Below are positions 35,449 to 50,610 of a DNA stretch of 64,000 nucleotides, piece after piece (within the stretch, counting starts at the first letter, position 1; every line of letters begins with the position of its first letter). The translations under genes were made by a program, and so were the position numbers. The notes below the pieces were generated by a model that saw only the letters and a program-made list of their open reading frames with translations, was not told the origin of the DNA and made no database searches. Source of the DNA: Chitinophagales bacterium (GTDB lineage Bacteria > Bacteroidota > Bacteroidia > Chitinophagales > JAHQVX01); contig OZ244113.1 of NCBI GenBank assembly GCA_965215685.1, positions 2,927,487-2,991,486 on the forward strand, written 5' to 3'.

Positions 35449-37182
35449 TCACTTATTCGCCATGGCTATCCTTCTATAGAGTTTTAAAACTGTTTCGGGT
35501 AAATCGTTGGGTTTGGAAAGAATGCTGTAATGATTGACCCCAAACATTTGTGGCAAGTAGTACCGAGCCTGTTCCTCAATGGCAACAGCGTAGCTTTGAA
35601 TATGTTTGCTATGTAATTCCTTAATGGCTTGCTTAATGTCTTCCACGCCGTACTTTCCTTCATATCTGTCGTAGTCGTTAGGTTTGCCGTCTGATAACAA
35701 GATGACCCATTTAGCTTTAGATACGTGCTTACTCAATAAAAAACCGGCGTGCCTAATGGCCGGGCCAATACGTGTAAATCCCTGTGGTGAAATAGCTCCG
35801 ACATTTGTACGAGCTCCTGTCCACCTGTCTTTGAAATGTTTGAGTGTTACGTAAGAACAAAAGTTTCTGGTTTTAGAGAAAAAACCGTCTATCTGGAAGT
35901 CGATATCAAATTCTGAAAACACCTCGCCGAGAATGATAACGGCCTGTTTTTCAATATCAATAACACGTTGGCCGGAAATATAGCTTTCACCGGAAAGACT
36001 TAAATCGATCAGAAAGAGAATAGATAGTTCTTTTTTACGCTTTCGTCTGGAGATATATATATTCTCATCAGGGGTTACGCGCGAGTGAATATCTGTGTAC
36101 ATGTCAGTTACCTGATCCAGATCAAATTGGTCGCCCTGGCTTACTCTGTTCACCTTAGCAGATGAATTATAAAAATGGGCAAGATTTTTCTTTAAAGAGG
36201 TAATGTTCCTTTGGTTGGCTCTAACGGTATCAAGCGCATATTCACTTTTGTAAGATTTGAAAAGTAAAGGATATACACGGCAGAAATCGTTTCTGTACCG
36301 GGCTGTCTTTCCGTTCCATTCGGGGTAAGAGTAATAATGCCCTTCTTCTTTCAGAGCCTTACTTTCAGCTAAGGTAAGTTGCCCTCCAAAATCGACTTTA
36401 TAAACGGAGTGAACCACATCATCTACCCGAACGGTATGTTTTAGATTCAGTTCTTCCAAAGCGTGAGCATCATCCTTCAAATTGTCATCACCTTCAAAAT
36501 CACGCCATATATCATCAAATTCTTCTGCGGTTTCAATTTTCTCGAAATTGTGTTGTAATGTGAAATCTTCCTGCGCCTCTTTATCTACCTGAATGGTAGT
36601 CATTTCTTCTACCGGCTTGGACTCTATTTCAGTAGTAATATCATTATCGCCTGCCTTTCCTGTAATATCGTTAGCATGTTCCAGTTCATCGGGGCTGAAA
36701 AAAAGATCATCCTTCATCCACTTGCCATAGAGCCAGTAACTTTCTATTTCTGCAATATTCAATTCAGCATGCAGGGCAGGGAAGTGCTCAAACTCTTTTT
36801 TAACCGATGCAATTACTTCTGGAGCGATCTGTTTGGCTGCATATCGGGCTTCTTCGGTCTTCACATCTTGCCTTTTAAGGCGTTCTGCCGCCACGTTCTG
36901 TTGATAACTCAAATAGAAAACGCGGTAGAGATAAAACTTGAAGTTTTGTTCTAACGTCTCATAGAGATTCATCTTTTCGGGCAGATAGAAATTAAGCCCT
37001 TTTCTGCCGCCTTCGCCAATAGCAGGCATAATTTCAATGGGTTCATTGGTCAGGGCGCGGGCAATTAAGGTTAGTCGTGGCCTTACTTCATGGAGAAAAA
37101 CGGCGTGTACGTCCTCACTCTCTCGCTTTTTCTTCTTTCTCCACAGAACGAATTTCTTAAACAGTTTTTCGCTGATATCCAT
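35449..37182 (-). CDS. norD: Nitric oxide reductase activation protein (VWA domain)
   Basis: YSYPEWNG...Y, MIDAS motif LIDLSLSG, TRIGPAIRHA, LSDGKPNDYDRYEGKYGVED. Directly follows norQ. Confidence 0.9.
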   Translation of the reverse strand: MDISEKLFKKFVLWRKKKKRESEDVHAVFLHEVRPRLTLIARALTNEPIEIMPAIGEGGRKGLNFYLPEKMNLYETLEQNFKFYLYRVFYLSYQQNVAAERLKRQDVKTEEARYAAKQIAPEVIASVKKEFEHFPALHAELNIAEIESYWLYGKWMKDDLFFSPDELEHANDITGKAGDNDITTEIESKPVEEMTTIQVDKEAQEDFTLQHNFEKIETAEEFDDIWRDFEGDDNLKDDAHALEELNLKHTVRVDDVVHSVYKVDFGGQLTLAESKALKEEGHYYSYPEWNGKTARYRNDFCRVYPLLFKSYKSEYALDTVRANQRNITSLKKNLAHFYNSSAKVNRVSQGDQFDLDQVTDMYTDIHSRVTPDENIYISRRKRKKELSILFLIDLSLSGESYISGQRVIDIEKQAVIILGEVFSEFDIDFQIDGFFSKTRNFCSYVTLKHFKDRWTGARTNVGAISPQGFTRIGPAIRHAGFLLSKHVSKAKWVILLSDGKPNDYDRYEGKYGVEDIKQAIKELHSKHIQSYAVAIEEQARYYLPQMFGVNHYSILSKPNDLPETVLKLYRRIAMANK

Positions 37183-37190
37183 GGCAAAAC

Positions 37191-37973
37191 TTAAATAGCC
37201 AGGTATGCTATGTCTTCCAATGCCTGGTTGGTCTCTTCATCGTCCGATAAAGGCTCTAACACGGCTACTTTCACGGCCAACCGCGGAGGTAAGCCGCTCC
37301 GGATCAATTTAGCCGCATCTACTAGTAATCGGGTTGATGCTGTTTCACTTAGACCTAACTCCGTAAGATTCCTGATTTTGTTACCAATAGTCACCAATTT
37401 GCCGGCCAAACTTGAACCTACTCCTGTTTCTTGCGCAATAATCTCCTTTTCTACTGATTCTTTTGGATACTGAAAGGAAAGAGAAACAAATCGTTGTCGT
37501 GTGGATGGTTTTAATTCCTTAAAACCTTTTTGATAGCCCGGATTGTATGAACCAACCAGCATAAAATCTTCATGCGCCACAATTTCAACACCTAACTTAT
37601 CAATAAAAAGGGTACGCCGATAGTCAGTAAGGGAGTGAATAGCCACCAAAATATCAGGACGTGCCTCGGCAATCTCATCTAAATAAATGATGGAACCGTT
37701 TTTTGCTGCCTGTGTTAATGGACCATCAATCCATATGGTTTCGGCACCACGAATGATGTACCGTCCGATTAAATCTGTAGATGATGTTTCTTCGTGACAA
37801 GTAACCGTTAAAATATCCTTATCCAAGCTATAAGCCATGTACTCGACAAAGCGCGATTTACCTGTACCCGTTGGCCCCTTAAGCAACAAGGGAAGCTGGT
37901 TTTTATACGTATGCTCAAATACTTCAGTCTCCCGGTCAATCTGCCGGTAATATGGTTCAGTTGCGATCTTCAC
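37191..37973 (-). CDS. norQ: NorQ/NirQ/CbbQ AAA+ ATPase
   Basis: Walker A GPTGTGKS, CHEETSSTDLIGRY, YLDEIAEAR, SYNPGYQ...KELKPSTRQRF, STRLLV. Confidence 0.93.
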   Translation of the reverse strand: MKIATEPYYRQIDRETEVFEHTYKNQLPLLLKGPTGTGKSRFVEYMAYSLDKDILTVTCHEETSSTDLIGRYIIRGAETIWIDGPLTQAAKNGSIIYLDEIAEARPDILVAIHSLTDYRRTLFIDKLGVEIVAHEDFMLVGSYNPGYQKGFKELKPSTRQRFVSLSFQYPKESVEKEIIAQETGVGSSLAGKLVTIGNKIRNLTELGLSETASTRLLVDAAKLIRSGLPPRLAVKVAVLEPLSDDEETNQALEDIAYLAI

Positions 37974-38011: not shown

Positions 38012-39376
38012 TTATGCAGGAGTTGGGATAAATTGATCTTCCGGACTCTCTATAGCTTCTTCAGTCGGTCTTCCGTATTTAATGAAGTCAATAATATAAA
38101 GTACAACACCAAAGGTGAACAAACACGCTGCCGCAAGCATGATCCAAAAGTGAACGGAAAGTTCATTTTGTGCTTCCATGAAATTCATACCAACTTTTCG
38201 CTCAAGATAAACCTGTCCTATACCGGCAGCAGCCAGGGCGGTTGTCATACCCACCATACCAATGTTGGATGTCCAAAAGGCCAGCTGACCCCGGGAGTTT
38301 TTGTATAGTTTTCTGCCTGTAAGCAATGGCATGGCGTAAGCTATAAGTGCAAAAACGAGCATGCCGTATGCACCCCAAAAAGCAAGGTGCCCGTGCATAG
38401 CCGTAACCAACGTGCCATGTGTCCAAAGGTTAACCTGTGGTAAGGTATGGGCAGCCCCAAGTAAACCGGCACCAACAAACGAAGTAATGGCACAACCCAA
38501 CGTCCAGTACAAGGCAATGGTGTTCGGATGTTTTTTATTTCCCTTTCTGTACATAGCAAAGGCGAAAAGTGCCATCCCTAGAAAAGCCAAAGGTTCTAAG
38601 GCAGAGAAAATACCACCAATAACCAACCAGTAATTGGGAGTACCAATGTAATAGTAGTGGTGCCCTGTTCCAAGAATTCCTGATATAAATGTAAGCCCAA
38701 TAATGACATACAACCATTTCTCTATCACTTCGCGGTCAACACCCGTTAATTTAATTAATAAGTAGGCCAAAATACCACCCATTATTAGTTCCCAAACACC
38801 TTCAACCCAAAGATGAACAACCCACCAACGGAAGTAAGAATCGAGGGTTTGATTATTGAACCATAACATACCCGGCAAGTAAAGCAATGCCGCAAAAACA
38901 AGTCCCATGGCAAGGACCATAGCCGTAGTAGTACGTTGTTTTCCTTTCCACAATGTGGCTAAAATAATTCCGAGAAATAGTAATACATTCACCACTACCA
39001 AATAGTCAAGCGGCCTGGGTATCTCCAAAAACTTTCGACCTTCCCACCAGTTAAAGTGGTAACCGACAACTGCAACAACACCTACCAAAGCAAAGCTCCA
39101 AAACTGCAGTTTGGCCAATGGCACGGACGCAAGTTCGCGTTGAGATTCTTCCGGAATGATATAATACGCAGCACCCATAAAACCTGAGAGCAGCCAAACA
39201 ACTAAAAGGTTAGTGTGCGTGGCACGTGCGGTGTTAAACGGAATGAATTGGTGAAACCACTCATCGAAGCCCAAACGGCCTAAACCCATTATGAAACCAT
39301 ACACGATTTGCAGTACCAGCAATAGCATGCTGAGTGCGAAAAATAAATAAGCGACTTTTTGTGATTTATACTTCAT
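38012..39376 (-). CDS. norB: Nitric oxide reductase large subunit (cNOR)
   Basis: ARATHTNL (heme b His), RWWVVHLWVEGVWE, GTGHHYY, HGHLAFWG. Length 454 aa with no N-terminal qNor extension. Confidence 0.95.
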   Translation of the reverse strand: MKYKSQKVAYLFFALSMLLLVLQIVYGFIMGLGRLGFDEWFHQFIPFNTARATHTNLLVVWLLSGFMGAAYYIIPEESQRELASVPLAKLQFWSFALVGVVAVVGYHFNWWEGRKFLEIPRPLDYLVVVNVLLFLGIILATLWKGKQRTTTAMVLAMGLVFAALLYLPGMLWFNNQTLDSYFRWWVVHLWVEGVWELIMGGILAYLLIKLTGVDREVIEKWLYVIIGLTFISGILGTGHHYYYIGTPNYWLVIGGIFSALEPLAFLGMALFAFAMYRKGNKKHPNTIALYWTLGCAITSFVGAGLLGAAHTLPQVNLWTHGTLVTAMHGHLAFWGAYGMLVFALIAYAMPLLTGRKLYKNSRGQLAFWTSNIGMVGMTTALAAAGIGQVYLERKVGMNFMEAQNELSVHFWIMLAAACLFTFGVVLYIIDFIKYGRPTEEAIESPEDQFIPTPA

Positions 39377-39388
39377 GATTTCGGGGTT

Positions 39389-39826
39389 TTAATTTGATGA
39401 TTCTTGTTTCAGGTCCGGTTCTGGAGGAAAGCCGTTAAGATCAACTTCTCCGCACCATTTCAAAAAAGCTATAACTGCATCTGCATCTTCTTCGTTCATC
39501 TCATAAGCGACCATTTGTCTTCCGTTTGGCCCCCACGGAACCGGCGATGTCATAATGGCTTTTATTATTTCGGGGCCAACCCTTTCGTATGATTTTGTTA
39601 ACTCTGGTGCATAATAGGCACCTTCGCCCAAAATGGTATGGCAGCCCATACAGTTGTTCTTTTCCCATATTTTCTTACCCTTAATAACCTGTGCAGTTAG
39701 GTTTTCTGCGTTGGTTTGGCCGGGAACGGACTTGGCCACCGTATGCCAGGTTAGCCCGAGAAAGACGGCAAAGGAAAGAATAGTACCGCCGAAGAAAAAT
39801 ATTTGCGCTTGTTTTTTAGATAACAT
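39389..39826 (-). CDS. norC: Nitric oxide reductase cytochrome c subunit
   Basis: N-terminal TM anchor, CMGCHTILGEGAYYAPELT, and RQM axial Met. Confidence 0.95.
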   Translation of the reverse strand: MLSKKQAQIFFFGGTILSFAVFLGLTWHTVAKSVPGQTNAENLTAQVIKGKKIWEKNNCMGCHTILGEGAYYAPELTKSYERVGPEIIKAIMTSPVPWGPNGRQMVAYEMNEEDADAVIAFLKWCGEVDLNGFPPEPDLKQESSN

Positions 39827-39878: not shown

Positions 39879-39898
39879 AAAAGATATTTTTATCTTTT
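39879..39898. promoter_or_regulatory. Putative Rrf2 operator upstream of norC
   Basis: Perfect palindrome AAAAGATA-TTTT-TATCTTTT, nearly identical to 46508-46527. Confidence 0.6.
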
Positions 39899-39928: not shown

Positions 39929-40360
39929 TTACAAAACTCCCTGATTGTCCATCTTTCTTAAATACTCCAATACTGCACGGGCCTTGGTTTCGTCAAGCAT
40001 ACCTACTACCATGGCTATTTTTTTATATTCCTCGAAAAGGGCCCTTGCTTCAGGATTATGTTTAACCATATCCTTGTTATGCAACAGAAGGTTCATTATA
40101 TAATTTGGCGACCTTCGGTTGGTTACCCCTGCCAAAGGCGGTCCTATTAACTTATTGTCAAACCGGTGACAGGCGGTACATATTTTGTTAAATTCAATCT
40201 CGCCTAAAGCCGCCAGTTCATCATCAATATCGGTTAGTTCTACTGTTATATAATTTTGCATTTCCCATTGTTTGTTATTTTTTTTGTTTGAGGAACAGGA
40301 TAGAAACAAAAGGACCAGGGAAGCAATAAGAATTATGGAAATCGCAATTTTATTCTGCAT
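39929..40360 (-). CDS. Monoheme cytochrome c, lipoprotein
   Basis: Lipobox LFLSC, heme motif CTACH, KLIGPPLAGVTNRRSPNYIMN, and a distal AM. Confidence 0.88.
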   Translation of the reverse strand: MQNKIAISIILIASLVLLFLSCSSNKKNNKQWEMQNYITVELTDIDDELAALGEIEFNKICTACHRFDNKLIGPPLAGVTNRRSPNYIMNLLLHNKDMVKHNPEARALFEEYKKIAMVVGMLDETKARAVLEYLRKMDNQGVL

Positions 40361-40582
40361 GGCTAAAGATATTATATGAAGATATGGAAATACAAATGGT
40401 GGGTATTGTTAGGCATAATTTTACTTACAGGTGTGTTATCTTATTCCAACAAAGAAAGAGTGATTCAAAAGGATTGTGGAGAGCATTGTTATTGTAGATT
40501 CTCTGTTAGGAAAAAATCTATTTTCTTTATTACAATAGAAAATAAGCAATCCTTTTTAGAGCGGGTTTGTCATTAGTCCCTT

Positions 40583-41354
40583 TCGTCAGGGTGAGCTCGC
40601 CTGAATGACTTAGTCGGGCAGGCTTGCTAACGTCATGGCGAGCCTGACGAACCATGAGACCCTATTTGATCTCTCTTTGACTTTTAATTGCATGTTTTCA
40701 ATCTGTGCACAAACCTTCTTCAGAGTCTCTCTAAAACTCCAAATTTTAGTAGAATTGTGTTACGAGTCGAAGACTCTGAAGAAGCCTTCGCTTCGGCTTC
40801 GATCAGCTCAGGGTGACGTCGTGTCGACATCTTCGTCATGGTGAGCTTGACGAACCATGAGACCTACACTATAGAATAGGACAATACAAGTCTCACCCTT
40901 CGTCAAGCTCAGGGTGACGCCGTGTCAACATCTTCGTCATGTTGAGCTTGACGAACCATGAGTTCTGTTAACCGTATTGATCTCTTCGTCATGGTGAGCT
41001 TGACGAACCATGAAACCTGTTAACCGTATTGATCTCTTCGTCATGGTGAGCCTGACGAACCATGAGACGGGCACCCCAAAACAAAACAATTCACATCTCA
41101 CCCTTCGTCAAGCTCAGGGTGACGTCATGTCAACATTACTAATCGCATCGGAATCTTCGTCATGGTGAGCCTGACGAACCATGAGATCCTATTTGATCTC
41201 TGTTTGACTTTTTATTGCATGATTTCAATCTGTGCACAAACCTTCTTCAGAGCCTCTCTAAAACTTCAAATTTTAGTAAAAATGTGTTACGAGTCGAAGA
41301 CTCTGAAGAAGCCTTCACTTCGGCTTCGCTCAGTGCAGGCTGGCTCAGGGTGAC
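40583..41354. repeat. REP/BIME-like mosaic of palindromic units
   Basis: Six 27-bp CGTCATGGTGAGC(T/C)TGACGAACCATGA units at 40631, 40834, 40935, 40987, 41039 and 41158. Partner units CACCCTTCGTCAAGCTCAGGGTGACG. A roughly 185-bp segment occurs twice (about 40631-40817 and 41158-41354). Confidence 0.88.
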
Positions 41355-41451
41355 GACGGGTCAAACTTCACCCCTCCGGCCTTAATTTTTCGGGCAGGCG
41401 TTAGGGTAACATCTTACCAATGCTTGTGGATCGGGGAGTTTGCGACTCCTG

Positions 41452-43461
41452 TTACTTAGGTTGCAGATTTAAGTCTAAACCTATATAAAAAGATCTTCCC
41501 CAGGAAAACAGGGTAGTTTCGTGCGCTGAACCTGCCGATATCGTTTTCTCTTCCAGGTTATTCTGGTTTAAAATATTACGTACTCCCACACCTACATTCA
41601 ACAAGTCATTGGCCACCTTCTTATTAAGGTGTGCATCAACTAAATGCATGCCTTTGGTCTGTGTTTCGTAGTAGGTATCATTCGGCCTTGAATAGTAATA
41701 ACCCCTGCGCTGCCCTCGCATTTTATACCTTAAAGTTGCGCCACCTTTTTGGTAAGGCATTGAGTAAGTTAGACTTGAAACAAGATCAGACGATAACAAC
41801 CATTTATCCGTTTGGCCGTTACTTGTGCCGTATAAATCGTTCTTGTTCTGAAAAAGATGATGGCCCAGATCAAGTGACAAATTGCGCACTGGCTTAAGTG
41901 CCAGCTCGGCCTGCAAACCGTAGGTTACATCGGAGTTAATATTTATATAGTGCCTACTGAAGTTTTCTAAAGGACTTAATGCTATAAGATCTTTCATATT
42001 ATTATAGTGGGCCTTTACCTCCAAGCTGCCGGGCTTACCAAAAATGTCGTTGTTGAATTTATAACCCAACTGAATATGATCAGATGTTTCCGGTTTTAGC
42101 TTTTCATTACCCGTAATGTGATATGTAAAGGGTCCTGCCGCAATTCTAAAATCTAAATAAAGTTCTTTTAAGCTCGGACTTCGAAAACCGTGGGCGTAAG
42201 ATGCCCAAATCTTATTGTGATCATTTAATTGGTATTTACTGCTAATGGCCGGAGTAGCTACATTCTCGCCGTAAGAGTAGTGCGTTAATCTAAGGGAGGG
42301 TTCAATGGTTAACGCAGGAACTGGAAAGTATTTAATGGCGGAGAAAGCCGCCAGATCACTTAAGTGCTGTTTCCTGTTTAAAATTCTTTGTCCCGTAGTA
42401 TGCTCCCGACTAAACTCAGCTCCGGCTAAAATGTGCAGTTTTTCATCGGTCGGGCTATAGCTATAGGTTCCCCTAATATGCCAGGTGTTGAACTTTGTAG
42501 TGTCGTGGTTTGTGGCATCTGACAAATTAGAGATTCCGCTATTCAAATCTGTTGTATAAGATAAGAGTTCGCGGTTGTAGTTTGAATTAGACACACTTAA
42601 CTCCATATAGTTAGCCGAGCTTGTGTTTCCACTCAGAATAATAGAATTTACCAACCGTTTTGTACGATAGTTAAAATCCTCGGCTATGCCGTTGGTATCT
42701 CCAACTCCCCGATCTGTAAGTTTATCATTGGCATAAGACGACCTAACATGGGCCTGCCAATCCTTCATGTAATAGATATAGTCTAAGGCTGCAGAATATT
42801 GCTTTCTTTTTTCCCAATCAAGTGCCCGGTCATCATTGAAAGAAACACCGGCTGCATTATTGGTACTGCCGCTTAGTTGAAACGAATGCTGTCCGGTAGT
42901 AAAATGACCTTTTGCATTCAAATCAACAGCATCTATACTTTCATACTGTGCGCCCAAAGCGAAAAGAAATTTTTCTGAACCCTGATTCTCAGTAATAATA
43001 TTAATGATTCCGCCTATAGCATCGGTGCCGTAATACGCCGAAGTAGGACCTTCAATGATCTCCACCCGATTTACGTAATCAAGGTTGATCTGATTCAGAT
43101 CTATTACACCATCTAATCGGCCTACTACGGGTACGCCATTTACCAGAATTTTAATATTCTCTTTTGACACTCCGTGGATACTGGAACTAGTACCAAAGAC
43201 CGATGCCTGAGTCAGGTCAAAGCCCAGTTGCAAAAACAGGGCTTCCCGTAACCGGAAAGCCCTTATGTTCTTTAGTTCTTCGGCGGTAATAACCTTTACA
43301 GGAACTACCGTCTTTTCAGGTGAAAGTGGGTGAAACTGACCAGTAACGACTACTTGTTCAATTTCACCGTAAAGCAGAGAATCCGGGGTTTGGGAAAGAC
43401 CCAACCGACTTGCCATTATCAATAATACAATGCCTATTAAATTTCTCATGCTTCTTTTCAT
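41452..43461 (-). CDS. TonB-dependent receptor, heme/tetrapyrrole type (HmuR-like)
   Basis: TonB box EQVVVTG, plug KILVNGVPV...RVEIIEGPTSAYYGTDAIGGIINIIT, GFRSP...YHITGNEKLKPE (FRAP/NPNL-like with His), C-terminal GRSFYIGLDLNL. Confidence 0.9.
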   Translation of the reverse strand: MKRSMRNLIGIVLLIMASRLGLSQTPDSLLYGEIEQVVVTGQFHPLSPEKTVVPVKVITAEELKNIRAFRLREALFLQLGFDLTQASVFGTSSSIHGVSKENIKILVNGVPVVGRLDGVIDLNQINLDYVNRVEIIEGPTSAYYGTDAIGGIINIITENQGSEKFLFALGAQYESIDAVDLNAKGHFTTGQHSFQLSGSTNNAAGVSFNDDRALDWEKRKQYSAALDYIYYMKDWQAHVRSSYANDKLTDRGVGDTNGIAEDFNYRTKRLVNSIILSGNTSSANYMELSVSNSNYNRELLSYTTDLNSGISNLSDATNHDTTKFNTWHIRGTYSYSPTDEKLHILAGAEFSREHTTGQRILNRKQHLSDLAAFSAIKYFPVPALTIEPSLRLTHYSYGENVATPAISSKYQLNDHNKIWASYAHGFRSPSLKELYLDFRIAAGPFTYHITGNEKLKPETSDHIQLGYKFNNDIFGKPGSLEVKAHYNNMKDLIALSPLENFSRHYININSDVTYGLQAELALKPVRNLSLDLGHHLFQNKNDLYGTSNGQTDKWLLSSDLVSSLTYSMPYQKGGATLRYKMRGQRRGYYYSRPNDTYYETQTKGMHLVDAHLNKKVANDLLNVGVGVRNILNQNNLEEKTISAGSAHETTLFSWGRSFYIGLDLNLQPK

Positions 43462-43476
43462 CTTATTGTGAAAAAA

Positions 43477-45159
43477 TTAATAAATATCGTCTCTTGTATT
43501 ATACACGTTGAACTTACCGGTAGGTGTTACCATCCATTCACCGGTAATCTCATTTTTCAACTCGAGCGTTTTGTCGTCATATACAAGAAGAGCGTTTTCC
43601 AATGGTTTATCCATTTTACCCCAAACAGAGACCCATACTTCGGTTCCTTCTTTGTTATATTCCATGTGTACAGCACGTCCTTTATATTTTTCAGGAACCT
43701 GAATGGACTTCTTCAATTCCAATGTGTTTACATCAAACACATCAATGGTGCGTTGTAAATCAACCGCGTTACTAAGTGCTCTATCGGCCCAAAGATGTTT
43801 AGAGTTAGGGTGGCTCTTAACGAAAAGGTTTCCACCACCTCCACCGGTTCCTTTTGCCGTGGCAACTTCTTTAAACTGGTTGGCTCCGGGATCTGTGGCT
43901 ATAAACGATAGTCGGTTCTCCCCAATATGACCTGAAACCCATAAGTTACCGTACTTAGGATTCTTGATATTAGTACCTCTGCCGGGGTGAGGCTTAACTC
44001 CAACGTCAATAATAGTTTCCAACTTTTTATTAGGAACATCTATCACAACAAGTTTGTTGCTGGCATTAGCGGCTACGATAAAGTATTTTCCGCTTTGGTC
44101 CCAACCGCCGTCATGTAAGAACTGTGCAGAAGGGATCTTGGCAGTGTTTTCATCTATCTTATCAAGATCTGAGTAATCAACCAACCAAACCATTCCGGTT
44201 TCTTTTACATTTACGACCCAAATAGGATCGGTATGTGACGCCACAATGGAGGCTACGCGCGCTTCTTCCAAAAATTCACCTTCATCAAGAATTTTACCTG
44301 ATGTTTTAATGACTTTTAGAGGTTCCAGCGTCATGGCATCCATTACCACATAGTGTGAAGGTGTATAACCACCTACAATGAGATATTTGTCGCGGAAATC
44401 ACCAAGCGGTCCGTTATATTTTGATACTTCAACCGAACGGGCGTCGAAAGATGCTTTACCCTCAGCAACAACTCCCGGAGTTTTCATCCAAAGGTCAATG
44501 AGCGTTACCTTACCATCTCGACCAATACTGTAGAAGTACCTTCCTGAAGAAGATGATCTTAAAATATGTACTGCATAACCTGTTTCAACAATGGCAATTT
44601 TTTCCTTTGTGTCACCATCAATTATGGCCACCTTACCTGCATCTCTAAGGATCAATCCGAAGAAGTTTTCCCAGTTCCTGTCATGCTGTGGTTCTGTTGG
44701 TCTGTCCGCAACAGGAACAATAACATTCCACTTCTCCTGCATATCGTCCATAGTCCATTCCGGAATTGGAGGAGGATCCAACTGAATGAACTTAGCCATA
44801 AGTGTTACTTCCTCCGGACTTAAAATTCCCTGGTTTCCCCAGTCTGGCATACCACCCGGAGTACCATTATGAATAAATGCTTCAAGGCCTTCTGTTGTCA
44901 ACAGCTGAGTTCTATCATCCGGTAACAGGGCCGGACCGGTGGCCCCTTTACGGGCCGTACCGTGGCAGCCTGCACAAGTTTGGAAATAGATATTCTTGGC
45001 GCGCTGCATATCAGCACCCGCAAGTCTTACTTTACCATCGGCCGATACATATGTTTTAGTATCTACCTTCTCTTTTTTGCCTTCAGTACTTTTCTTACAC
45101 TGTACAAATACCATTGCACAAAGCAGGAAAAAGGCTACATATTTAATAGGTTTCATCAA
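43477..45159 (-). CDS. nirS: Cytochrome cd1 nitrite reductase
   Basis: CAGCHG..RKGATGPAL, GMPDW, d1 axial GYAVHILRSS, catalytic FLHDGGWD and PHPGRG, C-terminal TPTGKFNVYNTRDDIY. Confidence 0.95.
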   Translation of the reverse strand: MMKPIKYVAFFLLCAMVFVQCKKSTEGKKEKVDTKTYVSADGKVRLAGADMQRAKNIYFQTCAGCHGTARKGATGPALLPDDRTQLLTTEGLEAFIHNGTPGGMPDWGNQGILSPEEVTLMAKFIQLDPPPIPEWTMDDMQEKWNVIVPVADRPTEPQHDRNWENFFGLILRDAGKVAIIDGDTKEKIAIVETGYAVHILRSSSSGRYFYSIGRDGKVTLIDLWMKTPGVVAEGKASFDARSVEVSKYNGPLGDFRDKYLIVGGYTPSHYVVMDAMTLEPLKVIKTSGKILDEGEFLEEARVASIVASHTDPIWVVNVKETGMVWLVDYSDLDKIDENTAKIPSAQFLHDGGWDQSGKYFIVAANASNKLVVIDVPNKKLETIIDVGVKPHPGRGTNIKNPKYGNLWVSGHIGENRLSFIATDPGANQFKEVATAKGTGGGGGNLFVKSHPNSKHLWADRALSNAVDLQRTIDVFDVNTLELKKSIQVPEKYKGRAVHMEYNKEGTEVWVSVWGKMDKPLENALLVYDDKTLELKNEITGEWMVTPTGKFNVYNTRDDIY

Positions 45160-45177: not shown

Positions 45178-46476
45178 TTAATTGGTTTCTTTTAATGATT
45201 TTATGAATTTAGGATTGAAGCTAACCATAGCGTAAATCCAGTTTTGAGTGGCATCTTTTGATCCGCCTTTTAGCACTTCCATAGTTTCAGATGGAAACAT
45301 ATGAGAGTATCCGATTCCGGCATTAACCATTGGATTAAGTTTGAATTTTGAACTTAGGTCCAACTCCGTACCCAAATAAGCCGGCATGGCATCATTTGTT
45401 GTAGCCGGATCACGGACATCGGCAGCAGCAGAGAAAAAGTGAAGATCTGCACCAAGCCCAACTTTTGGCAGTTTGAATTTTGCCTTGGCATAAATGTCGG
45501 CAAGCCCAACGCTACCGCCATGATTGCCTACATAGAAATAGTCCATGTGGCCGTTGAACTTGTGGTTTGTGCCGTATAACGGCGTAAATGCTTTTTGCTT
45601 TGCATCCTGATCGGTTTGTGAATTTCCTGATTGAAGCTCACCACCAATAATACCGGTTACTATATCAGATAACTTATAGCTTAGATCAAAGCCTAACAGA
45701 TAGGCACTTAAGTCGGTTTTTGTATAAACAGGAGCCTTTCCGGTTTGGAGATAGGCGTTAGCAGTTAGTCCCAGCTTATCTTTCTTATAGTTAAGATGTG
45801 TGCCAAAGGTTTGGCTAAACTTTGTGTCAAACTCAGTAGGGATACCACCGGAAACCTGAACTCCATTATTCAAAGCAAGAAGACTAAGCCCAAGTTCATC
45901 GTTCAGTTTAGTGTTGAACCAGGCAAACTGTATGGTTTTGTAATTACCGGGAACAGTATAAACCGTTGAATTCAGAATGGGGGCGTTCTGATTGAAGGCC
46001 AAGCCAATATCTAACTTGGAAACGGTACCCGGAGTGAATTGAAGTAACAAGGCATCGTGGCTACGAGCTTGTTGCGCCCAACCTACATTACCGAAAAAGC
46101 GGCTGTCGTCATAAATAATTTCCTGCCGACCGGCCTTAATAGCAGCTTTTCTTGCTTTGCCAATATAGGCCTTGGCCCATGCCTGATGAATGGAAAGTGC
46201 ATTGTCTTCATTGCCAACTAACTGTCGTTGATTTCCCCATGTCCGCACATCTTGAGCACTTAAATAAGCTTCAGCCCAGTTTCCTTTATATCCTGCATTT
46301 AACCGTGTTCGTTGTGTTGTATGAAAACCTGGATCCTGGTTTTCTGCCGCCAAAGTTTTTAATCCGTGTGTGTATTCTGTTCGAGGTCTGAATTCGCCTG
46401 ATATTTCAATTTCCTGCGTATAAGAAGCCATACTTCCGGCAAGAATTAATAATAAAATAAACAATCTATATTGCAT
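45178..46476 (-). CDS. Alginate-export (AlgE-like) family outer-membrane porin
   Basis: Signal peptide, ISGEFRPRTEY...TQRTRL, GRQEIIYDDSRFFGNVGWAQQARSHD, FTPLYGTNHKFNGHMDYF, LGTELD. Start at ATG 46476, supported by the -7 box. Confidence 0.82.
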   Translation of the reverse strand: MQYRLFILLLILAGSMASYTQEIEISGEFRPRTEYTHGLKTLAAENQDPGFHTTQRTRLNAGYKGNWAEAYLSAQDVRTWGNQRQLVGNEDNALSIHQAWAKAYIGKARKAAIKAGRQEIIYDDSRFFGNVGWAQQARSHDALLLQFTPGTVSKLDIGLAFNQNAPILNSTVYTVPGNYKTIQFAWFNTKLNDELGLSLLALNNGVQVSGGIPTEFDTKFSQTFGTHLNYKKDKLGLTANAYLQTGKAPVYTKTDLSAYLLGFDLSYKLSDIVTGIIGGELQSGNSQTDQDAKQKAFTPLYGTNHKFNGHMDYFYVGNHGGSVGLADIYAKAKFKLPKVGLGADLHFFSAAADVRDPATTNDAMPAYLGTELDLSSKFKLNPMVNAGIGYSHMFPSETMEVLKGGSKDATQNWIYAMVSFNPKFIKSLKETN

Positions 46477-46494
46477 CGTTAGAAATTTAAAAAG

Positions 46495-46502
46495 CAAAAT
46501 TA
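46495..46502 (-). promoter_or_regulatory. -7 box (TAATTTTG) of the porin-nirS-TBDR operon
   Basis: Exact TAnnTTTG match 18 bp upstream of ATG 46476. Confidence 0.6.
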
Positions 46503-46507
46503 CGATA

Positions 46508-46527
46508 AGAAGATATTTTTATCCTTT
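46508..46527. promoter_or_regulatory. Putative Rrf2 operator between the divergent porin and Rrf2 genes
   Basis: AAGATA-TTTT-TATCCT, one mismatch from the norC palindrome, lying over the expected -33 region of the operon promoter. Confidence 0.6.
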
Positions 46528-46560
46528 ATTATGCAAAATATTTTCTTCAAATTTGCCAAT

Positions 46561-46956
46561 ATGCTATCTAAGAGAACCAAGTATGGTTTAAGGGCTATGG
46601 TGCATTTGGCCAGGGAGGGTAGAAAAACTAAATTGATGAGTGTGGAACACCTGGCGCATTGGTTAAATGTACCAAAGCATTTCTTAGCTAACATAATGCG
46701 TGAGTTGGCCAGGCATAAGTTGGTTTCTTCTCAAAAGGGGCCTGGCGGAGGTTTTTATCTGAATGAACTGCAAATTCTTAAAAGCCCGCACGATATTATT
46801 ATGGCTCTGGAAGGCGATCATTTCCTGGGATCGTGTTTGTTGGAATTGAAACCCTGCGTTGTATTAGAACCATGCCCTTTTCACGAACACTATGGAAGTT
46901 TTAAGGAATCCTTTTTAGCACAAATGGCCAGTAAGAGATTGCTGGATCTTATTTAG
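46561..46956 (+). CDS. Rrf2 family (NsrR/IscR-like) Fe-S transcriptional regulator
   Basis: MLSKRTKYGLRAMVHLA, SQKGPGGGFYL, and the C-x6-C-x5-C-x2-H cluster motif. Start taken at ATG 46561. Confidence 0.9.
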   Translation: MLSKRTKYGLRAMVHLAREGRKTKLMSVEHLAHWLNVPKHFLANIMRELARHKLVSSQKGPGGGFYLNELQILKSPHDIIMALEGDHFLGSCLLELKPCVVLEPCPFHEHYGSFKESFLAQMASKRLLDLI

Positions 46957-49298: not shown

Positions 49299-50610
49299 CA
49301 TTCCTGTCCTAAATAATTTTCAATCTTAAAAAATAGGTTCCACAACCCTTATAAACAGGCTTAGATTTCGTTATTTAAAATTTAGAACCCCCTGAAGTGA
49401 TTTTGGTGGCGGTTTTTCGGGCTTTTGAAATGGATTGTTTAGCCATTGTAGTAGATCAATTTTCACAAAGCAGTTGAGCCTGATAAAAGCTATTAGATCG
49501 GACAAATTCCACTTGAATTTTTAAGTATTTGAGCAATAATATGGTTGTCAGAGCCGTCCATATTTGAATCATTACCGCATTTTCACTTGTACCGATAAAG
49601 GTTTTAATGTGCGTTAATTGCTTGATGTCTCTGAAGAATATCTCAATCTGCCATCGCTGCTTATACAACTGCCCTATAGTTTGAGCTGCCCACTTGAAAT
49701 TATTGGTAATCAGTTCTATTACTTGCTCATTTTTTTCGTCCCTCACCGCTACTCTGCGAAGTTTTTCAGGATACTTTTCTTTTGACTGTGCATGAAGTAG
49801 TTCAATCTCCTGGTCTATAAGTATGTGTTGAGCGTGCTTTTGAGGCAGTTCCCGTTCTTTTACTTGCCGATATCGAAGATTGTCTTTATGTCTAATAACG
49901 AAATAAACATCTCTGCTGTCCCAAACCTTGAGCATAGGGAAGTCATTGTAATACCTATCGGCTACAATTACTGATCCGGCTTGCAAGGGAATACTTTTTG
50001 CCCCTTTATTATCACCCACTTTGCCATCGGTAATGTTTACATAAACCGGTAGTTTACTGTCGTAATCGAGCAATGTGTGTAGCTTAATGGCCCCTTTGGT
50101 GGTTCTGAATTTTGCCCAGTCAAATAAGGATAAGCACAAGCTAACTATGGTTGAATCCAACAAATAAACAGGCACTTTTATGCGTAGGTTTATCCGTTTG
50201 CCCTTAATCTGCTGTCCTAATTGTTGAAGTAAGAGAAAATAAAAATCTTTAAACAAGGTGTAATCTCTGTTTTTATTTTGATAGCTGATAGAAGATTTGC
50301 TTGGTGCCCGTTGTATGCCCAAATGATTTAAGTTGCCCGTGGCTGAACGCAAACCGTTAGAAATATCCCGAACAGATAAACTGTGGGCAAAATGGCAAAA
50401 CAGCATAGAAACCAGGTGTGTCCAGCTATCAAATCCTTTGTTATGCTTGTCAGTTTCTTTTTTAACAACTATTTTTTTGAAATTTACTCGATCTATTAGT
50501 GATATAATCTGAGAAAATAATGTGAAATTTGACATGGAGGTTTTGTTTAAAATCAACTCGAAATTATTCGAGAAAACTTAATCTCCATCTTTTTATTTAG
50601 GACGGGATTG
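49299..50610 (-). mobile_element. IS4-family insertion sequence (about 1312 bp)
   Basis: 18-bp IRs CATTCCTGTCCTAAATAA / TTATTTAGGACGGGATTG (16/18). No flanking direct repeat is visible. Confidence 0.8.
49371..50535 (-). pseudogene. IS4-family transposase (DUF4372 + DDE), frameshifted near the C-terminus
   Basis: LLDSTIV, KLHTLLD, VADRYY, YKQRWQIEIFFR. After KYLK the reading frame diverges, and the family-like tail KWNLSDLIAFIRLNCFVKIDLLQWLNNPF...NFK* continues in another frame to a stop at 49371. Confidence 0.8.

Follow-up and report, generated by a model that had tools for sequence, protein, structure and literature searches.

The window analysed here is a stretch of 64,000 nucleotides (G000 C1:2927487-2991486) from the genome of a Chitinophagales bacterium, and coordinates are given in this window unless a genome is named. 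The source genome, designated G000, is complete and consists of one contig of 3.2 Mb (100% complete). The window contains a denitrification island in which nirS, the gene for cytochrome cd1 nitrite reductase, starts 18 bp after a gene for an outer-membrane beta-barrel and is followed after 15 bp by the gene for a TonB-dependent receptor (Table 1). The original prediction had given the coordinates of the pair, the 15 bp gap and a receptor motif, all of which were correct on re-reading of the open reading frames (ORFs), and had proposed that the receptor may import haem d1, the cofactor of NirS, or a precursor of it. This proposal is supported by comparative genomics and by one published phenotype. 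In the comparison presented below, nirS and a distinct clade of receptor genes were identified side by side in one operon in more than 50 other species, and nearly all of the genomes tested are devoid of the haem d1 pathway.

Table 1. Genes and other features of the denitrification island, in window coordinates.
Feature	Position	Strand	Evidence	Remark
Rrf2-family (NsrR-like) regulator	46531-46956	+	Pfam Rrf2 1e-21; NCBIfam rrf2_super 75.9 bits, above cut-off	divergent from nirS operon
Palindromic operator-like site, core GATAAAAATATC	46510-46526		read from sequence	precedes porin-nirS-receptor operon
AlgE-like (Alginate_exp) outer-membrane beta-barrel	45178-46497	-	Pfam PF13372 4e-9	first gene of the operon
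nirS, cytochrome cd1 nitrite reductase, predicted lipoprotein	43477-45159	-	PF02239 1.8e-113; cytochrome c domain PF13442 1.6e-12	
TonB-dependent receptor, nirS-linked clade, candidate haem d1 importer	41452-43461	-	Plug + barrel	
Repeat-packed non-coding spacer, 1.1 kb	40361-41451		no credible ORF	between nirS-receptor and nor genes
Small c-type cytochrome, possible electron donor	39929-40360	-	Pfam Cytochrom_C 3e-5	
Second copy of the palindrome, AAGATAAAAATATCTT	39881-39896		read from sequence	precedes norC
norC	39389-39826	-	Pfam Cytochrom_C/NorB_cyt_c-like	
norB	38012-39376	-	Pfam COX1 1e-65	
norQ	37191-37973	-	Pfam AAA_5 + CbbQ_C	
norD	35449-37182	-	Pfam VWA	

The window NirS was aligned with the Pseudomonas aeruginosa enzyme (1NIR) over nearly its full length, with a score of 532 bits. 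The haem c site is kept, with the CxxCH motif (as CAGCH) and the ligand Met88, and so are the haem d1 ligands, the proximal His182 and the distal His327 and His369, and the carboxylate-binding residues Arg156/185/198/225/372 (P. aeruginosa numbering; the d1-site residues correspond to H198, H349, H391 and R172/201/214/241/394 in the window protein). The ligands of both haems and the arginines were found to be invariant in an alignment of 54 receptor-linked NirS (54/54). The motif -LHD- marks NirS, while -PyD- marks NirF and -LDD- marks NirN (supplement, PMC10999283); the window protein carries FLHDGGW, so that the NirS motif is present. Judged by these residues, it is a genuine, haem d1-competent cd1 nitrite reductase, in agreement with the original description of a full enzyme with all d1-site histidines. 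Its likely start is an ATG located one codon inside the listed TTG, and the N-terminus, MKPIKYVAFFLLCAMVFVQC followed by KK, has the form of a lipoprotein-type signal ending in Cys. The lipoprotein Cys, followed by a linker rich in Lys, Asp and Glu, is common to all NirS proteins from Bacteroidota and Rhodothermus which adjoin the receptor (44860-45159 in the window; loci L004-L075). These proteins are thus predicted lipoproteins, whereas proteobacterial NirS is soluble. The NirS proteins from Acidobacteriota have no lipoprotein Cys and contain extra cytochrome c domains instead.

For the synthesis of haem d1, the complete genome was searched with the families of the pathway. With PF02239, which covers NirS, NirF and NirN, NirS alone was matched, so that neither NirF nor NirN is encoded. 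For NirJ (TIGR04051), the best match in the genome reached 43.8 bits, where the cut-off is 515, and the ORF in question was rejected as a TrsS/Tes-type radical S-adenosylmethionine protein. No match was obtained in the genome for NirDLGH/AhbAB (PF17805), for SUMT/NirE (TIGR01469), for HemB (PF00490) or for the ferrochelatase HemH (PF00762). The absence of haem d1 genes, originally noted for the 64 kb, hence extends to the complete genome, and the whole-genome search that had been named as a possible refutation revealed neither the pathway nor SUMT, HemB or HemH. Identical searches recovered all these families in other genomes, and in the control Sulfidibacter corallicola a nirJ-nirDLGH-nirF-nirE-nirN cluster was retrieved, in which NirJ scored 523 bits. 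The genes are thus truly absent from G000. On its gene content, the organism cannot make any tetrapyrrole and would be a total tetrapyrrole auxotroph, despite the presence of NirS, NorCB and c-type cytochromes. Since both HemB and SUMT are missing, there is no route to an isobacteriochlorin, and an unknown late pathway is excluded as well. The statement that the receptor has no HmuY partner also held for the whole genome, in which no HmuY homologue was identified by tblastn. The two next-best TonB-dependent receptors were considered as a second haem system and rejected, as their neighbours are not haem-related. In the same genome, a further TonB-dependent receptor with a Plug match only is located beside a convergent gene for a DUF6580 protein (locus L112, 7573-10260; G000:C1:3179572-3182259), and these two might be a cofactor uptake pair.

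Since NirS was present in none of 60 order-level relatives of G000, the comparison with other genomes was run via the receptor. Loci were collected with a profile from an alignment of 29 receptor sequences, using one genome per species and keeping the best 80 loci; a query with a single protein found nothing. Relatives of the receptor, about 660 residues long and 33-47% identical, have nirS directly upstream in seven of seven metagenomic contexts, with a varying order of the surrounding genes. Among the 80 genome loci, nirS is located immediately upstream of the receptor gene in 46. The taxa include Saprospiraceae, Flavobacteriaceae (Lutibacter, Maribacter, Gaetbulibacter), Cyclobacteriaceae, Cytophagales, Weeksellaceae, Bacteroidales, Lewinellaceae and Rhodothermus. 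All close homologues (at least about 31-33% identity) with readable upstream sequence adjoin nirS, while locus L053 begins at a contig end; orthologues apart from nirS or beside hmuY or btu genes, which had been considered as contrary evidence, are not among them. This recurrence in 46 of 80 loci, together with the presence of nirS beside every clade member whose upstream sequence is readable, confirmed that the adjacency exceeds chance. In four loci (L007, L013, L014 and L018), the pair stands alone among housekeeping genes with the nor genes elsewhere, showing that the link is to nirS and not to nor.

A gene for HmuY is found next to the receptor in none of the 46 nirS-adjacent loci. The distant homologues (32% identity or less) are HmuY-flanked haem receptors of the HmuR type, which form a well-supported separate sister clade. 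On the receptor tree, the label 'nirS-adjacent' is strongly clustered, with none of 500 shuffles giving a value as low. The distances among the NirS proteins and among the receptors co-vary (Mantel r = 0.62, 0/999 permutations), an indication that the two genes are inherited together. In a related clade from Acidobacteriota, the receptor, an AlgE-like barrel and nirS are located within a few kb.

The original prediction had asked whether this receptor clade sits beside nirS where the d1 genes are absent, and this was found to be the case. Tested were 48 genomes with nirS and the receptor, G000 and 47 others. Neither NirJ nor NirF/NirN was identified in 47 of them, Sulfidibacter being the exception, and 46 are without NirDLGH, since PF17805 was matched only in Sulfidibacter and in one Holophagae metagenome-assembled genome (MAG). 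SUMT is missing in 32 of 44 genomes, among them G110, a second complete genome, and Gaetbulibacter sp. S0825, an isolate. In an even sample of the phylum, NirS was present in 4 of 401 genomes, each with a single PF02239 match and with the receptor adjacent, and in Lutibacter it was present in 5 of 61 genomes, again with one PF02239 match each. The carriers differ in their capacity for haem b: HemB and HemH are present in G110, G064, G067 and G116 and are missing in G000, G083, G061, G082 and G101. Some carriers thus make haem b, so that auxotrophy for haem b does not by itself account for the pair.

Of the genomes found, only Sulfidibacter corallicola M133 (Acidobacteriota, 11.8 Mb) combines the receptor with the haem d1 pathway. 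Here, genes for ScdA, the receptor, a Crp/Fnr regulator, a hypothetical protein, the AlgE-like barrel and NirS follow each other at one site (locus L063, at 0.88 Mb), and the full nirJ-nirDLGH-nirF-nirE-nirN cluster is located 10 Mb away from this site (G102:C1:11050061-11056788).

The receptor itself consists of a Plug domain (2.5e-17) and a barrel domain (9.9e-31; both Pfam), preceded by a signal peptide and a TonB-box-like sequence, IEQVVVTG. The motif GFRSPSLKELYLDFRIAAGPFTYHITGNEKLKPE had been compared with the signature of haem receptors, and both boxes were identified, the FRAP-like box as FRSP and the NPNL-like box as NEKL. The best NCBIfam family is TIGR01785 (TonB-hemin), with 120.9 bits, and its cut-off of 316.85 is not reached; the BtuB families TIGR01779 and NF007926 gave 113.5 bits against 599.7 and 103 bits against 836, respectively. 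A structure prediction had been suggested as a further check. The AlphaFold2 (AF2) model, with a mean confidence (pLDDT) of 80 and TM scores of 0.7-0.86 to solved TonB-dependent transporters, established the transporter fold and did not distinguish the substrate. BtuB and PhuR tie as the top matches of the model, and PqqU is also found among the matches. The fold search was discarded as a substrate test, with BtuB, PhuR, siderophore receptors and Cir all within about 100-fold in E-value.

A difference between the two sister clades was identified in loop 7. In the column between the FRAP-like and NPNL-like boxes, His is present in 27 of 27 HmuY-linked receptors, and it is replaced in the nirS clade by Tyr (42) or Phe (8), ahead of which the loop has an insertion of three to four residues (AGP). 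The nirS clade also has invariant residues of its own, Arg503 and Lys100; the clade from Acidobacteriota shares the loop features and Arg503 and does not share Lys100. The window receptor contains the pair Tyr447-His448, as PhuR does, and its loop, TYHITGNEKLKPE, aligns with GYHIEPNPNLKPE of PhuR (the 'YHI' segment), in which the Tyr is a haem ligand. A tetrapyrrole is a plausible cargo, given that the sister clade is made up of haem receptors linked to HmuY. In sum, the sequence features are consistent with a metal-tetrapyrrole ligand that is unlike the cargo of HmuR.

A separate arrangement is present in two Flavobacteriales MAGs (L067, 6678-12975; L075, 6634-12933), where nirS is accompanied by genes for a protein with a type IX secretion system (T9SS) tail, a receptor of the HmuR type and HmuY. 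In these receptors the loop His is replaced by Ile, and the genomes are without the haem d1 pathway. A haem-uptake system seems to have been recruited to nirS here for a second time, independently.

Among the known systems, HmuR/HmuY of the Porphyromonas type is the nearest relative, with 29-33% identity, the same plug-plus-barrel organization, both boxes and a sister position in the tree. The nirS-linked receptor differs from it by the absence of HmuY, by the exchange of the loop-7 His for Tyr or Phe, by the loop insertion, by a length reduced by about 75 residues and by its constant position next to nirS. PhuR, ShuA, ChuA and HemR (TIGR01785) provide the best family and barrel matches. However, 121 bits are far below the 317 required, the window receptor is not accompanied by genes for haem degradation or ATP-binding cassette (ABC) transport, and its operon is regulated together with the denitrification genes, with no obvious signature of iron starvation. 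BtuB shares with the proposed system the TonB-dependent import of a complex tetrapyrrole which is made by other members of the community, and it is the second-best family match. It differs in that the score (113 bits against 600) is too low, in that BtuFCD and BtuG are not present beside the nirS receptor and in that the cargo proposed here would stay in the periplasm.

The logic proposed for the nirS receptor has a counterpart in E. coli, which encodes a periplasm-facing apo-glucose dehydrogenase, does not make its cofactor and uses the TonB-dependent receptor PqqU (YncD) to bring the finished molecule to the periplasm only. There, however, the cargo is a quinone and not an iron tetrapyrrole, the receptors are not close relatives, and PqqU is not encoded in an operon with its client enzyme. 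A precedent for denitrification is the copper receptor NosA/OprC of Pseudomonas stutzeri, a TonB-dependent outer-membrane protein which supplies the cofactor of N2O reductase; it differs in its metal-ion cargo and belongs to an unrelated receptor subfamily.

Two pure cultures were considered for the phenotype. Lutibacter profundi LP1T (G522) contains the gene order Rrf2-norC-norB-nirS-receptor-barrel-norQ-norD and a single PF02239 match. This strain encodes NapAB, NirS, NorBC and NosZ, and was described to reduce nitrate to nitrite only and not to grow anaerobically on nitrate (PMC5219744). The halt at nitrite fits the outcome expected from an empty NirS in pure culture. Rhodothermus marinus denitrifies in pure culture (PMC11214002); since it also has NirK, its phenotype was set aside as uninformative for NirS.

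In the window, the regulator gene, the operon and the nor genes of Table 1 form one island. The same palindrome core, GATAAAAATATC, is shared by the front of the barrel-nirS-receptor operon and the front of norC, and its half-sites AAGAT...ATCTT are similar to an NsrR box. This putative site is consistent with a common control by the adjacent Rrf2/NsrR-like regulator in response to nitric oxide (NO). An Rrf2 gene also adjoins the cluster in L004, L020, L027, L036 and L111. A scan for promoters and terminators gave counts which were not above the shuffled expectation and was not considered further. Public sequencing runs containing the locus carry no label of their kind and probably represent the DNA of the assembly itself, and they were not taken as RNA evidence. 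A homologue of the AlgE-like barrel accompanies about 70% of the nirS-receptor loci, Sulfidibacter included (for example L008, L009 and L063), and may let anions through, either nitrite or nitrate. The spacer between the receptor and the nor genes contains a 52-nt unit in five copies, a 185-nt unit in two copies and several inverted repeats, similar to repetitive extragenic palindromes (REP) or miniature inverted-repeat transposable elements (MITE). The island is flanked by an IS4 transposase gene (49456-50556).

As none of the 60 order-level relatives contains NirS, the island appears foreign to this lineage and was probably acquired horizontally. The nearest homologues of NirS (75-81%), NorB (87%) and the receptor (43-45%) are all found in one Saprospiraceae MAG. 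In the Saprospiraceae MAG nearest to the window, nirS is present as two PF02239 pieces in different frames (L012, 8849-9862; G061:C15:13047-14229), which is either a frameshift or an error of long-read assembly.

The data demonstrate how the genes are arranged, that the pathway is missing, that synteny extends throughout the clade, that the receptor is related to haem receptors and that the d1 site is conserved. The ligand, the direction of supply and the direct hand-over to lipoprotein NirS are inferred. The reading that we favour, and for which the balance is moderately positive, is that the receptor scavenges haem d1 from outside and supplies it directly to apo-NirS in the periplasm. An outside source of haem d1 is required because a conserved, d1-competent NirS is present in genomes that are unable to make the cofactor. 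In the proposed sequence of events, the NO-responsive Rrf2 regulator would switch on the porin-nirS-receptor operon, and NirS would be exported, lipid-anchored in the periplasm and loaded with haem c, with the haem d1 pocket empty. The receptor, which would be specialised for haem d1 (or for a d1-like iron isobacteriochlorin) freed by other denitrifiers, would capture it at the cell surface, and TonB energy would drive its release into the periplasm. With about 700 Da and four carboxylates, haem d1 is a cargo for a TonB receptor rather than for a porin. Apo-NirS would then bind the cofactor directly, and an inner-membrane transporter as well as NirF, NirN, NirJ, NirDLGH and NirE would be dispensable. 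Semi-apo NirS takes up haem d1 spontaneously in vitro. Since NirS works in the periplasm, an importer in the outer membrane alone would be enough, and the nirS cluster is without genes for inner-membrane transport, matching this scheme.

Several points weigh against this proposal. In Sulfidibacter, a related receptor is encoded 4 kb from nirS in a genome with the full pathway, so that the receptor is not strictly confined to haem d1 auxotrophs. Most of the compared genomes are MAGs, although the complete or isolate genomes G000, G110, G083, G116 and G522 agree with them. As far as can be judged from its sequence and fold, the receptor cannot be assigned to haem d1 rather than to haem b or cobalamin. 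The natural occurrence of free haem d1 at usable levels is assumed, and the phenotype of L. profundi has other possible causes. In addition, G000 is also a haem b auxotroph with no system of the HmuY type found elsewhere in its genome, so that here the receptor could serve general haem uptake.

The last point leads to the main rival explanation, that the receptor is a general importer of haem b (iron-porphyrin), co-expressed with the denitrification genes because NirS and NorCB need much haem and iron, above all where the host is a haem auxotroph. It is favoured by the five carriers without HemB and HemH named above (G000, G083, G061, G082 and G101), by the failure to detect another HmuR/HmuY-like system in G000, by the haem and B12 receptors among the best family matches and by the Tyr-His pair in loop 7, which aligns with PhuR, a haem b receptor. 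However, in the 80 best loci the clade adjoins nirS exclusively, not norB or oxidase genes, and it never occurs in a genome free of nirS. It is retained in haem prototrophs, the His that is invariant in HmuR is replaced while clade-specific Arg and Lys residues appear, and a conserved, d1-competent NirS would be left without a source of its cofactor. On this evidence, a haem b importer is unlikely, if still the rival to be taken most seriously.

A further possibility, which we judge improbable, is that NirS uses another cofactor in the d1 pocket (haem b or a derivative) or has another role, in the handling of NO or O2, with the receptor importing that compound or an unrelated substrate. This would agree with a haem d1 pathway in 0 of the 401 genomes of the even phylum sample, with the predicted lipoprotein nature of a NirS whose proteobacterial counterpart is soluble, and with R. 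marinus, which has NirK too and denitrifies in pure culture (PMC11214002). On the other side, the iron- and carboxylate-binding residues for haem d1 are invariant in 54 of 54 NirS, the score of about 530 bits extends over a near full-length alignment to structurally characterised cd1 enzymes, and nirS is grouped with norCBQD under a regulator of the NO type. An undiscovered, non-homologous route to haem d1, with the receptor merely an unrelated neighbour, is hardly credible: SUMT in 12 of 44 genomes and some conserved small hypothetical genes in the clusters could be cited for it, but G000 without HemB, SUMT and ferrochelatase has no tetrapyrrole precursor, SUMT is also missing from G110, which is complete, and from the isolate G083, and an unrelated gene would be unlikely to keep strict synteny in three phyla.

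In the literature searched, no description of a haem d1 importer, of haem d1 auxotrophy or of haem d1 scavenging was found. Pold et al. 2024 compiled, clade by clade, the helper genes located no more than 10 kb from nirS, and the receptor and the absence of the pathway from whole genomes were not addressed. The machinery of TonB-dependent transporters is known, and PqqU and BtuB are precedents for the logic. What would be new is the ligand, the union of the importer with its client enzyme in one operon and the ecological consequence.

So far, haem d1 has been regarded as made privately by each nirS denitrifier. The broader view suggested by these data, which we hold to be about evenly poised, is that haem d1 is a traded public good and that obligate auxotrophy for it extends to all Bacteroidota and Rhodothermus with nirS and to several Acidobacteriota. 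These would rely on neighbouring producers via a dedicated receptor, which passes haem d1 directly to a lipid-anchored NirS in the periplasm. If this is true, haem d1 would be a new ligand class for TonB-dependent transporters, and cofactor cross-feeding would be a new dependency in denitrifying communities. It would explain why isolates like L. profundi, with 'complete' denitrification genes, halt at nitrite in pure culture. Counts of nirS genes would overstate the autonomous capacity for denitrification, and nirS abundance in metagenomes would have to be read differently where it stands in for nitrite reduction and the production of NO and N2O. For the bacteria themselves, it would mean that nitrite reduction is on only when neighbouring producers supply haem d1.

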